The notes beneath the pieces were generated by a model. That model was given only the letters and a program-made list of their open reading frames with translations, had not been told where the DNA came from and did no database searches. From contig JBFMBL010000011.1 in NCBI GenBank assembly GCA_040755195.1, positions 5,754-69,753 of the forward strand: a stretch of DNA of 64,000 nucleotides, in the 5' to 3' direction. The DNA is from Bacillota bacterium (GTDB lineage Bacteria; Bacillota; Desulfotomaculia; Desulfotomaculales; Ammonificaceae). Positions 14,258-46,348 of the stretch are shown here, in pieces. Numbering within the stretch: position 1 is the stretch's first letter; each line of letters begins with the position of its first letter. A program made the translations under genes and the position numbers.

Positions 14258-14521
14258 GTAACTATTCAGGTGTTTCGTCGTCGGGCGCGGCGATAGGCAA
14301 CGCATTGCTGCGTCAGCCCGCACGGAGCCGAATCCTCACCCAGCACTCAGTTACGCCTTGTAAGATACTACTTCTGAGGAAACGCATATTTGTCCGCCCC
14401 GCGAAACTACGCCTTCATAGCAATCTGAGTGCTGGGCTCCGGTTCGTCTCCGCGGTCTTCCTTGCACTGCATCACTTCTCGCCGCGTTCCGTCAGCGAAA
14501 TGCTGACGGCTGAATAGGTAC
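14258..14521 (-). mobile_element. Family A miniature inverted-repeat element, copy 1 (carries a nested family C hairpin)
   Basis: Terminal inverted repeats GTAACTATTCAG (14258-14269) and CTGAATAGGTAC (14510-14521). Perfect 8-bp direct repeats AGTGGTGA at 14250-14257 and 14522-14529. Confidence 0.8.
14339..14436. repeat. Family C hairpin module (98 bp) nested in family A copy 1
   Basis: Arms CCCAGCACTCAG and CTGAGTGCTGGG. It occupies exactly the position of the apical CGTAC...GTACG hairpin seen in the other family A copies. Confidence 0.7.
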
Positions 14522-16338: not shown

Positions 16339-16549
16339 TGAAAACATGGACCCTTAAGCTGGTGACTTAGAAGCACTAACGTGACAAAGGCGGAACGCGG
16401 CGAGAAGTGATGCAGTGCAAGGAAGACCGGTAGAGACGAGCCGGAGCGTACATAAGAGGTACGTGAGGACCCGGCTTTGCCGGGCTGACGCAGCAATGCG
16501 TTACTTCTCGCCGCGCCCACCGAAAGAAGCAGCATCTTCCGAGGGAGGG
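16339..16549 (+). repeat. Family A structured repeat, cob-type copy 2
   Basis: Core CGGAACGCGGCGAGAAGT...ACTTCTCGCCGCGCCC (16391-16518). Its flanks are shared with the copy at 19874-20088. It ends in GAGGGAGGG. Confidence 0.7.
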
Positions 16550-18113: not shown

Positions 18114-18347
18114 AATTAACCACAGAGACACAGAGAACACGGAGAGGAAAAACGGAAATATGGGTATTTATTTTATTTCTAAATCATGAAATTTCTGTTC
18201 TCTGTGAACTCTATGCCTCTGTGGTGACCCAGCACTCAACTTGCTGATCTTAAGACGTGGCGTTCTAAGTTCGTATTATGTACGATGTTACAAAGTAGTT
18301 TTAACGTGTCGTTGAGTGCTGGGTGGTTCCGGCTTGTCCGGGTTAGG
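18114..18347 (+). repeat. Family B intercistronic inverted-repeat element, copy 1 (carries a nested family C module)
   Basis: AATTAACCACAGAGACACAGAGAACA ... TGTTCTCTGTGAACTCTATGCCTCTGTGGTGA ... GGTTCCGGCTTGTCCGGGTTAGG. Homologous to 38450-38727 and 40264-40408. Confidence 0.7.
18228..18323. repeat. Family C hairpin module (96 bp) nested in family B copy 1
   Basis: Arms CCCAGCACTCAAC and GTTGAGTGCTGGG. It replaces the AATATTTT segment present in the other two family B copies. Confidence 0.7.
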
Positions 18348-19873: not shown

Positions 19874-20088
19874 GAAAATGGGTCGACCCGTAAGCTTGTT
19901 ACTTAGAAGCAGTAATGTAACAAAGGCGGAACGCCGTGAGAAGTGACGCAGTGCAAGGCAGACCGTCGGAGGCGAACCGGAGCGTACTGGGAGGTACGTG
20001 AGGATTCGGCTCGGGCGGTCTAACGCAGCAATGCGTTGCTTATCGCGGCGCCCACCGAAAGAAGTACTATCTATTTTCGAGGGAGGGG
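19874..20088 (+). repeat. Family A structured repeat, cob-type copy 3
   Basis: Core CGGAACGCCGTGAGAAGT...GCTTATCGCGGCGCCC. Its 3' GAGGGAGGGG serves as the Shine-Dalgarno sequence for cobT. Confidence 0.7.
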
Positions 20089-33066: not shown

Positions 33067-33244
33067 GCAACCATTCAAGTGCTTCCGTGGGGCGCGGCGA
33101 TAAGCGGCGCATAACTTCGTCAGGCCCTACCGGCCAGGTCCTCACGTATTCCCGTATACGCTCCGGCCTGTCCGGTTGTGCCTTCCTTGTTCTACTTGCT
33201 TCTGGCCGCGTTCCGTAAGTGTTAGGCGACAGATGAATAGTTAC
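33067..33244 (-). mobile_element. Family A miniature inverted-repeat element, copy 4
   Basis: Termini GCAACCATTCAAG and ATGAATAGTTAC. Perfect 8-bp direct repeats CCTCCGAT at 33059-33066 and 33245-33252. Confidence 0.8.
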
Positions 33245-44128: not shown

Positions 44129-45007
44129 TTATTTAAAGATTTCCGGCCCGTCAACCTTCGTCAACTCGCGAAACGCCCGGATCAACTCCCAGGTGATCGG
44201 ACCCGGGCGACCGTCGCCGATGGGCCGTGCGTCCACCTTGACCACGGGGATCACCTCTGCGCCGGTACCCGTCAGGAAGCACTCGTCGGCGATGAAGATA
44301 TCGTGCCTGGTGAAAACCTTTTCCGCGACGGGGATTCCCTTTTCGCGCGCCAGGTCTATTACCGTGTTTCTGGTTATGCCCTCAAGAGCGCCCAAAAACA
44401 ACGGCGGCGTAATCAGCGTGCCGTTTTTTATGATGAAGATATTGTCCGCCGAAGCCTCGGCAACATACCCGTCAGCGGTAAGCATAATCGCCTCCTGGGC
44501 AGCGCTGAGGTGCGATTCGATCTTCGCCATTATATTGTTCAAGTAGTTAAGCGATTTAATCCGCGGGTTCAGCGCCTCCGGGATGTTGCGCCGGGTGGAA
44601 ACCGTAACGACATCCAGACCTTTCTCATATAATTCCTTCGGATAAAGCTGGATTGTAGCCGCGATGCAAAAAACCGTAGGTTTTGAACATTTATTCGGGT
44701 CAAGCCCCAGATCGCCCTTCCCGCGCGTCACCACAAGCCTGATGTACCCGTCCCGGATGTTGTTCCGGCGGCACGACTCCAAAACGACCTCCTGCATCTG
44801 CTCTTTATCAAGCGGGATCTCGAGAAGAATTGATTTAGCCGACTCGTAGAGCCGGTTAAGGTGCGCCTGGAGCTTGAAGACCCGGCCGTGATAAGCCCTG
44901 ATCCCCTCGAAAACACCGTCACCGTACAACAGCCCGTGGTCGAAAACGGAGACCGCAGCCTTTTCCTCGGGAACGAATTCGCCATCCATGTAGATTAAGA
45001 GCCCCAT
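44129..45007 (-). CDS. ilvE: Branched-chain amino-acid aminotransferase IlvE
   Basis: ATG 45007 follows AAGGAGGAAG. VFDHGLLYGDGVFEGIRAY, class IV aminotransferase. Confidence 0.9.
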   Translation of the reverse strand: MGLLIYMDGEFVPEEKAAVSVFDHGLLYGDGVFEGIRAYHGRVFKLQAHLNRLYESAKSILLEIPLDKEQMQEVVLESCRRNNIRDGYIRLVVTRGKGDLGLDPNKCSKPTVFCIAATIQLYPKELYEKGLDVVTVSTRRNIPEALNPRIKSLNYLNNIMAKIESHLSAAQEAIMLTADGYVAEASADNIFIIKNGTLITPPLFLGALEGITRNTVIDLAREKGIPVAEKVFTRHDIFIADECFLTGTGAEVIPVVKVDARPIGDGRPGPITWELIRAFRELTKVDGPEIFK

Positions 45008-45047
45008 ACGTTTCTTCCTCCTTGGCTTGATAAAACTATAAACTAAA

Positions 45048-45537
45048 GCCTCCCGCCCGGTCCGCACTTAGTGCTTGACCAGGGACGAGAGGCTAAAACC
45101 TCCGCGGTACCACCCCGGTTGCCGCTACCTCACGGTAAAACGGCCTCTTTGGTGTGTCGTGTTCAACACACGGCTTTGGTAACGGGATACCATCCCGGAA
45201 CAGGCTACTGGGAACGTAAACATTCAGGTGCTCCCGAGGGGCGCGGCAATAAGCGGCGCATAACTTCGTCAGGCTTGCCGGCCAGGTCCTCACGTATTTC
45301 CGTATACGCTCCGGCCTGTCCGGCTGCGCCTTCCTCGTTCTACTTGCTTCTTGCCGCGTTCCGCAAACGTTAGGTGACGACTGAATAGTTACTACTCGGG
45401 ACCTAACATCCTTTTCGCCCTTCGACTCGGGGGTGATTAAGAAACGCGCTCCAGCACCGGCTCGCACCAAACCCGGCTCGCTTTGCAGCAAGACAGCGAT
45501 CCTTCGTCCCCGTCTTCGTCTTTAACGGCTATGATTT
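45048..45537 (-). promoter_or_regulatory. T-box leader (candidate Leu specifier CUU), interrupted by family A copy 5
   Basis: Minus strand has a Stem I distal AGCGAGCCGGGTTTGGTGCGAGCCGG, the T-box sequence AACCGGGGTGGTACCGCGG (45102-45120), and an F-box-like CCGTTA. Terminator hairpin GCCTCTCGTCCCTGGTC...GACCGGGCGGGAGGC (45048-45093) is followed by TTTAGTTTATAGTTTTAT. Confidence 0.75.
45216..45392 (-). mobile_element. Family A miniature inverted-repeat element, copy 5, inside the T-box leader
   Basis: Termini GTAAACATTCAG (45216-45227) and CTGAATAGTTAC (45381-45392). Flanked by a decayed direct repeat, TACTGGGA (45206-45213) versus TACTCGGGA (45393-45401). Confidence 0.7.
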
Positions 45538-45543
45538 CTCCCA

Positions 45544-45573
45544 AGTATACAAAAAACATCCGCCACATGTCAA
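45544..45573 (-). promoter_or_regulatory. Sigma-70-like promoter for the T-box/ilv operon
   Basis: Minus strand TTGACA (45573-45568), 18 nt spacer, TATACT (45549-45544). Confidence 0.5.
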
Positions 45574-45616
45574 GTATAATTGTGCCAACTTCTGTTTTAT
45601 GAGCTAATTAAATTTA

Positions 45617-46348
45617 TTAACCCGGCCGGGCATTCCTAATGCCTTCGGCCCCCGTCTCTGTGACCGGCTCCAGTAAAGCCAGAACCGGCAGGTGGTCCGA
45701 AGCCTCGCTGTCGATCCTTTTTACCTCACGTACCACCCAGTGCGGCGACACGAAAACAAAATCGATCCTCTCTTCGGGTTTACCCGCCGGAAAGGTGGCA
45801 AAGGTTCGGTCTATTTCCAACGCCGCATCTCTGACCCGTGCGTAGAGAGGCGCAAGCTCGTCGGCGTCCTGCAGGCAGTTGAAATCCCCGGTCAGGATAA
45901 ACGGGTGGGTTATCTCATTTAAAACCTCGATTATTCTTCCAACCTGCATACTGCGTGCTTCTATGCTGAGACCAAGGTGTGTGGTTAAAAAACTCCATTT
46001 TGCGCCGGAATCAACCACCGTGACCTCGATCAGGCCTCTTTGCTCCCCTTTCCCCGGTAAAACCCAGCGTTTGAACCCGCGCACCGGCAACCCGGTCAGG
46101 ACCGCATTCCCGAAAAGCGGCAACCCGGCGGCTTTTAATGTTGCGCCGAAAAAAGGCCTCATCTTGAGACGCCGCCCGAGGGTAACCGCCTGGCAGCGGA
46201 AACCGCTGCGTGGTGAATAGCCGTCGACCTCCTGGAGCGCCACAATGTCTGCGCCGGAAGCCGCAATAACCGCAGCCACCCGGCCGAGAGAAACCTTATC
46301 GTCAAGCCCCTTTCCGTGCCGTATGTTGTAAGTCAACACCTTGAGCAT
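45617..46348 (-). CDS. Endonuclease/exonuclease/phosphatase (EEP) family protein
   Basis: MLKVLTYNIRHGKG...IVALQEVD...SDHLPV motifs. Start is ATG 46348 or 46363. Confidence 0.75.
   Translation of the reverse strand: MLKVLTYNIRHGKGLDDKVSLGRVAAVIAASGADIVALQEVDGYSPRSGFRCQAVTLGRRLKMRPFFGATLKAAGLPLFGNAVLTGLPVRGFKRWVLPGKGEQRGLIEVTVVDSGAKWSFLTTHLGLSIEARSMQVGRIIEVLNEITHPFILTGDFNCLQDADELAPLYARVRDAALEIDRTFATFPAGKPEERIDFVFVSPHWVVREVKRIDSEASDHLPVLALLEPVTETGAEGIRNARPG

Follow-up and report, generated by a model that had tools for sequence, protein, structure and literature searches.

An isoleucine T-box leader of ilvE that probably still works with a transposable element of the miniature inverted-repeat type in the tip of its Stem II

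In a 64,000-nucleotide (nt) stretch of an Ammonificaceae genome (Bacillota; GCA_040755195.1, contig JBFMBL010000011.1, positions 5,754-69,753; hereafter the window), the leader of ilvE is a T-box riboswitch interrupted by 177 nt of repetitive DNA. The insert (45392-45216, minus strand) is a transposable element of the miniature inverted-repeat type (MITE) and belongs to a repeat family here called family A. The conservation of the T-box parts on its two sides suggests that the switch probably still works and merely tolerates the insert. The leader would be an isoleucine-responsive, transcription-terminating T-box controlling ilvE and probably also ilvD and ilvB. The genome of the window (G000; 2.73 Mb, 118 contigs, 94% complete) was assembled from groundwater metagenomes. 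A preliminary description had recognized a T-box with a family A copy in its middle and had left two outcomes side by side, namely that the riboswitch tolerates a self-folding insert or that regulation of the operon has been altered; the evidence presented below favors the first over the second.

The T-box model of Rfam (RF00230) matches the leader from end to end, its positions 1-219 aligning with 45525-45078 of the minus strand (47.1 bits, E 3.4e-9), and a search of the whole genome gives the same match. The T-box leader of the preliminary description is thereby borne out, and the promoter, the AGCGA bulge, the GGTGCGA distal loop, the CCGTTA motif, the T-box sequence and the long terminator were all recovered on the minus strand where it had placed them. 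The promoter (45573-45544) is the sole promoter-like site found by a consensus scan of 44950-45700, and both of its hexamers are invariant across G000, its closest species (G001) and a second member of the genus (G002). IlvE was found in 32 of 40 related genomes, 26 of which have a T-box ahead of ilvE, and 27 leaders were aligned. Over these 27 orthologous leaders, the columns of Stem I, which carries the distal loop motif GGUGCGA, are invariant, as is GGUGGUACCGCG of the T-box sequence, and the F-box CCGUUA is almost invariant. The terminator appears in the minimum-energy folds of G000, G001, and G002; a simple terminator scan misses it, since its loop is too long for that scan.

The specifier is AUC, at the codon position of the model. 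It is kept in 26 of the 27 leaders, with GUC in the remaining one, and its third base fits the "C rule" for T-boxes with a Stem II, a preference for C at the third codon position that is imposed by the Stem II S-turn (PMC7583486). The leucine specifier CUU followed by A (45441-45438), as first proposed, had to be abandoned: it lies off the codon position of the model, falls in columns that vary across the 27 leaders and breaks the rule of a C at the third base.

The insert sits inside Stem II, above the S-turn and between the GAA and AGUA strands, and 202 nt inside the Stem II loop stay unaligned in the RF00230 match. Its earlier placement between Stem I and Stem III holds only as a linear description, and its position in distal Stem II had been missed. 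From the flanks and the relatives, the Stem II that preceded the insertion can be reconstructed as GAAGGGC-GAA-AAGG-AUGUUAGG-UCCCG-AGUA-GCCUGUUC. The point of entry of the MITE separates the small hairpin at the apex from the S-turn's 3' strand; CCCGAGUA was duplicated in the process, and the right-hand duplicate supplies the AGUA beside the lower helix, which aligns with the AGUA of all orthologs. In the Stem II domain, function is ascribed chiefly to the mid-stem S-turn, and the more distal portion of the stem is described as variable (PMC7583486). The possibility that the family A segment is itself the real Stem I or Stem II was rejected, as the covariance model leaves the segment as an unaligned insertion and the leaders of 25 of the 26 relatives do not contain it.

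That the insert is a mobile element is evident from its copies elsewhere in the genome. An iterated nhmmer search (query 45200-45410) finds about 120 family A matches in G000, 51 of them full length and each of about 180 nt. Twenty-one of the full-length copies, including the ilvE one, carry 12-bp inverted ends (GTAACTATTCAG / CTGAATAGTTAC), and most of these 21 are flanked by exact 8-bp target duplications (e.g., TCCTAAAA, TAATGAGC, ATCGGAGG). In the ilvE copy, the right inverted end CTGAATGTTTAC has two mismatches, CTGAATAGTTAC being the consensus right end of the other copies, and the insert is abutted by decayed direct repeats, GTCCCGAGTA (45402-45393) and GTTCCCAGTA (45215-45206), which are identical at 8 of 10 positions, just as the preliminary description had it. 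Genome copies and ends likewise confirm that 45216-45392 is exactly one family A copy with inverted termini; it is 88.6% identical to the copy at 33069-33244, 12 kb away. The MITE has no coding capacity, and the inverted-end copies show no orientation preference relative to genes (13 on the same strand, 8 on the opposite one). An autonomous partner was not found in G000, where no ends 0.4-4 kb apart with matching duplications occur and no transposase adjoins MITE ends at contig edges. A consensus scan detected neither an internal promoter nor an internal terminator in the ilvE MITE, and no Rfam family was matched by the insert at gathering or E-value thresholds, in the window or at eight loci from other taxa. 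Folded in isolation in the sense of the leader, the MITE RNA is predicted to form a rod with paired inverted ends (-73 kcal/mol), and to that extent, for the element folded alone, the earlier idea that its inverted termini bring the flanks together is upheld.

Among the leaders of the 26 relatives, only that of G001, whose IlvE is 95% identical, shares the insert: it is 435 nt long, scores 49.1 bits and has a family A element at the same place, as compared with 448 nt and 47.1 bits in G000. The other 25 are 241-283 nt long (46.6-94.1 bits) and have no insert; in G002, of the same genus and with an IlvE 79% identical, the leader is 270 nt long and scores 58.5 bits. With the G002 leader as insert-free control, the insert costs the T-box only about 11 bits. 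From this distribution, the insertion would have entered after the split from G002, in the common ancestor of G000 and G001. The right-hand junction is common to both species and consists of the element end, GU(U/G), and CCC(G)AGUAGCC. At the left junction, precisely 18 nt are missing from G001, corresponding to the old apex plus the left duplication; the resulting Stem II, GAA-AAGG-[MITE hairpin]-GUGCC-CG-AGUA, is an uninterrupted helix with the MITE as its cap. Four metagenomes yielded no empty-site form, with the limit that runs represented by contigs only cannot prove its absence, and a metagenome scan with IlvE gave a best match of 71% identity and no further members of the clade of G000 and G001. 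In run X5, a 686-nt contig matches the window at about 98% identity over 45292-45700, with 24 nt missing at scattered places within 45359-45407. These gaps affect the left arm of the MITE and the former apex of Stem II and give the left junction a third form, different from that of G000 and that of G001.

The argument that carries most weight for a working switch is the contrast in divergence between these two species. The T-box parts on both sides of the insert are identical at 284 of 307 positions (92.5%), whereas identity is 68.7% (92/134) at the four-fold degenerate sites of ilvE and 69.3% (122/176) in the MITE. The T-box parts differ from the four-fold degenerate sites (Fisher p = 7.7e-10) and the MITE does not (p = 0.90). 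Identity amounts to 63/66 in 45393-45475 and to 126/138 in 45078-45215, and the conserved portion takes in the two strands of Stem II, the S-turn's GAA and AGUA and the F-box-bearing IIA/B element. By this measure, strong purifying selection acts on the T-box parts flanking the insert. Provided that the MITE was inserted before G000 and G001 split, selection would have kept the T-box with the MITE inside it. Both the response of the switch to tRNA-Ile and the functional neutrality of the MITE are inferred here from sequence.

Several observations weigh against a working switch that tolerates its insert. The score of the leader is below the Rfam gathering score of 93 and the T-box is missed at that threshold because of the 202 unaligned nt in the Stem II loop; most insert-free orthologs also score under the threshold, so the lineage is a low-scoring one even without the insert. 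The cores of the G000 and G001 MITEs differ at 17 of 36 pairs, of which 12 remain canonical, 9 by double changes. Together with the 88.6% identity of the G000 MITE to the copy 12 kb away, this divergence suggests that copies have undergone gene conversion or that the fold is under selection. Two separate insertions might also be behind it, which would weaken the argument from conservation; they are judged less likely in view of the identical junction and of the lack of a separate target duplication in G001. The sequence occurs in DNA metagenome runs only, with no RNA-seq run among them, and the cognate tRNA-Ile(GAU) was not found in the 94%-complete assembly of G000; it presumably lies within an unassembled rRNA operon.

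The folding of the leader also belongs among these points, and it is the starting point of the view, which we consider unlikely, that the insert has crippled or re-tuned the switch. Stem II would then be delayed and misfolded and its S-turn would no longer brace the codon-anticodon helix, with more termination or more read-through as a result, and the flanks would have stayed conserved only on account of Stem I, the discriminator and the terminator. In equilibrium models of the leader up to the F-box, the lower helix of Stem II is indeed predicted to pair with a probability of about 0.1-0.15 when the MITE is present, against about 0.5-0.66 in its absence, in G000 and in G001 alike. For the old apex of G000, GGAUGUUAGGU, a predicted pairing partner is ACCUAACGUUU within the MITE, and the 5' strand of Stem II has to wait about 215 nt for its partner during transcription. 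Thermodynamic folding of the whole leader is ambiguous. Neither the S-turn nor tertiary contacts nor co-transcriptional folding enter into such models, and equilibrium folding would for that reason count only weakly against function. Functional T-boxes without a Stem II do exist (PMC7583486), the glyQS type being of this kind, and the deletion in G001 and the metagenome gaps at 45359-45407 could be read as a junction that is still being remodeled and might compensate a cost. However, the conservation of the Stem II strands, the GAA and AGUA and the F-box element between G000 and G001 would be unexpected if Stem II were useless, and the deletion in G001 restores a canonical, continuous Stem II.

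A second alternative, which appears more doubtful still, is that the insert has been co-opted, the family A core acting as a functional RNA module (e.g., a protein-binding or stabilizing rod) that would bring a second input, or a role in processing or stability, to the ilvE leader and make it a composite regulator. Its appeal lies in the core itself. In 36 non-redundant copies of the 125-nt core, 95% of cells are paired and 24 of the 36 pairs show compensatory changes; the covariation score is 0.41, as opposed to 0.19 in shuffles (reached by 0 of 500) and 0.05-0.11 with slid partners. G-U pairs outnumber A-C pairs by 97 to 13, the favored strand being the one transcribed in the ilvE leader, and the fold of the core would therefore be selected on one strand. 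The motifs GGAGCGUA, UACGUGAG, and CUGAC are unpaired and invariant, and both G000 and G001 retain the fold of the core, with 32 and 34 of 36 pairs, although the two sequences have diverged by 31%. The core is shared by a second type of family A element, which exists in about 30 full-length copies and lacks inverted ends. On its 5' side, this type is longer by a conserved stretch of about 60 nt, which opens with AGGGAG-N5-ATG and continues with a GCCGC/GCGGC hairpin, then ACCA, and GAAAATGTAGACCCGTAAGC; its 3' tail ends with TATTTTCGAGGGAGG, an AGGGAGG Shine-Dalgarno sequence, directly ahead of a start codon. Copies of this type, sometimes in tandem, are always in sense orientation (23 sense and 0 antisense between co-oriented genes), and the type looks like an orientation-locked intercistronic element that would supply the Shine-Dalgarno sequence of a gene.

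Homologs of the core in other phyla are a further point in favor of co-option. An all-species genome scan for CGGAGCGTA-N(7-12)-TACGTGAG returned at least 119 loci, with about 400 chance matches estimated; among the loci listed, about 9 match the family model beyond the search motif. Core homologs were found in a Pelotomaculum assembly, in "Candidatus Desulfopertinax" and in a Bacillus species, with weaker matches (E 1e-5 to 2e-5) in assemblies of Nitrospirae, Gammaproteobacteria, and Binatia. The core-homolog loci have no common neighboring gene, and the core has no Rfam family. In an uncultured Pelotomaculum (L036 6151-6829), an ileS T-box (118 bits, AUC specifier) is followed by three tandem partial antisense family A cores between its terminator and the start of ileS.

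Against co-option, the identity of the insert equals the neutral rate, copies of the MITE type have no orientation preference, 25 orthologous T-boxes do without the insert, and neither an associated protein gene nor an Rfam family was found. Moreover, the G-U bias and the covariation can be inherited from master copies or be kept for a single-stranded transposition intermediate. In G000, the core may travel in two vehicles, the inverted-end MITE and an orientation-locked element of about 250 nt upstream of start codons. It is improbable, in our estimation, that the core is an undescribed strand-specific module of structured RNA (or single-stranded DNA), possibly present in several phyla, that gives the ilvE T-box an extra property; if it were, the core in Stem II would add protein binding, transcript stabilization or processing, beyond mere tolerance. 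That the insert arose in assembly, through a chimeric join induced by the repeat, can practically be discounted: the assembly is a metagenomic one of 118 contigs with about 120 family copies and short-read contigs break inside the repeat, but in two independent studies, contigs of the metagenome runs X1 and X4 cross both junctions, leading from unique flank into the MITE with 0-1 differences, the separately assembled sister species G001 has the insert at the same place, and decayed direct repeats flank it.

For a switch that tolerates its insert, the following course can be proposed. Transcription would start at the promoter 45573-45544, and Stem I would bind tRNA-Ile through the AUC specifier and the distal loops. 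The S-turn would be formed by GAA 45416-45414 and AGUA 45209-45206, the latter taken from the right-hand target duplicate. The MITE, co-transcribed and folded on itself into a rod, would lengthen the tip of Stem II considerably, in a direction away from the face that binds the tRNA. Pairing of the antiterminator, through its UGGU bulge, with the 3' end of uncharged tRNA would then block the terminator (45094-45047). The features concerned are compiled in Table 1.

Table 1. Features of the ilvE leader and its genes, with copies of the second family A element type (positions refer to the window unless marked as genome)
Feature	Position	Strand	Details and basis
Sigma-70-type promoter	TTGACA 45573-45568, 18-nt spacer, TATACT 45549-45544	-	11/12 consensus positions
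Stem I	45425-45519	-	K-turn (GACGAAGA / CGAG), specifier loop, AGCGA bulge, distal loop GGUUUGGUGCGAGCC; covariance-model alignment
Specifier AUC (Ile)	45437-45435	-	followed by conserved purine A 45434; codon position of RF00230 model; closing CCCC helix after
Stem II lower helix, 5' strand GAAGGGC	45423-45417	-	pairs with GCCUGUUC in covariance-model alignment
S-turn GAA	45416-45414	-	invariant in 27 leaders
Original Stem II apex hairpin GGAUGUUAGGUCC	45411-45399	-	overlaps left direct repeat GTCCCGAGTA (45402-45393)
Family A MITE, 177 nt	45392-45216	-	left inverted end GTAACTATTCAG 45392-45381, right CTGAATGTTTAC 45227-45216, rod-shaped covarying core ~45358-45242
S-turn AGUA	45209-45206	-	within right direct repeat; AGUA of orthologs aligns here
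Stem II lower helix, 3' strand GCCUGUUC	45205-45198	-	covariance-model alignment
Stem IIA/B pseudoknot element CGGGAUGGUAUCCCGUUA	45197-45180	-	with F-box CCGUUA (45185-45180); covariance-model alignment
Conserved linker hairpin GUGUGUUGAACACGACACAC	45171-45152	-	alignment of 27 leaders
Stem III	45145-45121	-	covariance-model alignment
T-box sequence GGGGUGGUACCGCGG	45116-45102	-	UGGU bulge 45112-45109; antiterminator region 45116-45078
Terminator	5' arm AGCCUCUCGUCCCUGGUC 45094-45077, 3' arm GGACCGGGCGGGAGGCU 45063-45047	-	U-rich tail to 45029; sequence
Shine-Dalgarno AAGGAGG	45023-45017	-	
ilvE	ATG at 45007, to 44129	-	NCBIfam: branched-chain amino acid aminotransferase
ilvD	43778-42108	-	NCBIfam: dihydroxy-acid dehydratase
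ilvB	42095-40422	-	NCBIfam: acetolactate synthase large subunit
Second-type family A copies	16349-16537, 19885-20072	+	
Second-type family A copies	genome C91:4009-4187, C3:30502-30676		

Two further observations were made around the leader in the related genomes. Above 45585, upstream of the shared promoter, G001 has sequence of the CTCTGTGCCTCTGTGG type that resembles "family B" repeats, and G000 has unrelated AT-rich sequence. In four relatives (G021, G030, G026, and G040), an RNA of the ykkC type (Guanidine-I model) lies between the ilvE T-box and ilvE; the matches score 52-68 bits, over the gathering score in one genome only, and the window has no such element. Variants of ykkC that bind guanosine tetraphosphate (ppGpp) are known beside branched-chain amino acid genes.

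The ilvE leader shares the anatomy of the T-boxes with a Stem II (RF00230), such as those of ileS in Nocardia farcinica and Mycobacterium tuberculosis and of tyrS and ilv-leu in Bacillus subtilis. Common to them are the K-turn, specifier loop and distal T-loops of Stem I, the S-turn, the IIA/B pseudoknot with the F-box, Stem III, the UGGN bulge and the competition between terminator and antiterminator, and known examples likewise have an Ile specifier ending in C and control branched-chain amino acid genes. The ileS examples act on translation, whereas the ilvE leader has an intrinsic terminator, and the B. subtilis ilv-leu leader reads Leu whereas the ilvE leader reads Ile. In size, the Stem II region of the ilvE leader (45423-45180, 244 nt) exceeds the range of about 10-200 nt given for this region, and the excess is a recognizable transposable element; unexplained insertions are reported to occur in every T-box domain (PMC7583486).

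The closest published case that was found concerns Streptococcus pneumoniae, where a BOX repeat lies between two trp T boxes and regulation apparently survives (Croucher et al., 2011, PMC3049150). Like the ilvE MITE, the pneumococcal BOX is a small, strongly folding repeat without transposase that is co-transcribed in a T-box leader, but it lies between two complete T boxes, whereas the ilvE MITE is inside a single one and splits the strands of its Stem II. Stem Sa of the staphylococcal glyS T-box, a lineage-specific insertion compatible with function (PMC9177973), is similarly an extra structured segment confined to one lineage. It is located in the terminator/antiterminator domain and has no hallmarks of a mobile element, whereas the ilvE insert shows ends, a target duplication and many copies. 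As for prokaryotic MITEs (Correia/NEMIS, RUP, ERIC and others), family A resembles them in its inverted repeats, its fixed 8-bp duplication, its lack of coding capacity, its tens of copies, its presence or absence among relatives and its hairpin fold when transcribed. Unlike them, it has a core that is more conserved than the ends, covaries on one strand and is shared with an oriented type lacking such ends. On MITEs and riboswitches, a review of MITEs only speculates (PMC10969869).

Other structured RNAs of G000 are inserted as well. Two of its five T-boxes, besides that of ilvE, carry about 100 nt in the tip of Stem II, and that they nevertheless score 105 and 96 bits counts in favor of tolerance. 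One of them, a Phe (UUC) T-box before the 3-deoxy-D-arabino-heptulosonate 7-phosphate (DAHP) synthase gene (C29:29242-29589, L031 343-690; 105 bits), has an insert of that length between arms reading CCCAGCACTCAG / CTGAGTGCCGGG, a module of another repeat family (family C). The other (C6:25745-26134, L032 346-735; 96 bits, AUC specifier) has unaligned stretches of 94 nt in Stem II and of 77 nt in Stem III, of which no other copy was found in the genome. A glmS ribozyme in the window (29973-29631, minus strand; RF00234, 90 bits) has 183 nt inserted in its P1 loop; this insert includes, at positions 84-195 of the ribozyme stretch, a palindromic repeat of about 110 nt (GGATGTCGGATGCAGGATGTCAGAGG...CTTCTGGCTTCTGACTTCTGA) with 24 BLAST matches in the genome. 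Sequence of a repeat family is present in at least two of these three other inserted RNAs, and peripheral loops of structured leader RNAs would appear to be places where hairpin repeats can persist. Family C comprises about 95 sites of 60-118-bp modules with near-perfect 12-bp inverted arms (CCCAGCACTCA(G/A)...(C/T)TGAGTGCTGGG), and its interiors belong to several unrelated sequence groups (e.g., 14339-14436 and 18228-18323 in the window). Its modules nest inside family A copies, where they replace the apical CGUAC hairpin, and inside a T-box.

The ilvE case is probably a tolerated insertion and is no new kind of regulator, repeats in T-box-controlled leaders being known from the pneumococcus; what it would offer is unusually good comparative evidence that a switch was kept after the insertion. 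For annotation, the insert pushes a genuine T-box far below the Rfam threshold, and the control of ilvE, ilvD, and ilvB by isoleucine would be missed. The leader would also amount to a natural experiment in which distal Stem II carries at least 177 extra nt while the rest stays under purifying selection, which may be useful for T-box engineering. For the T-box family, a MITE that landed in the tip of Stem II, was kept and was tidied in a sister species would provide a concrete origin for at least some of the lineage-specific insertions that have so far been unexplained.

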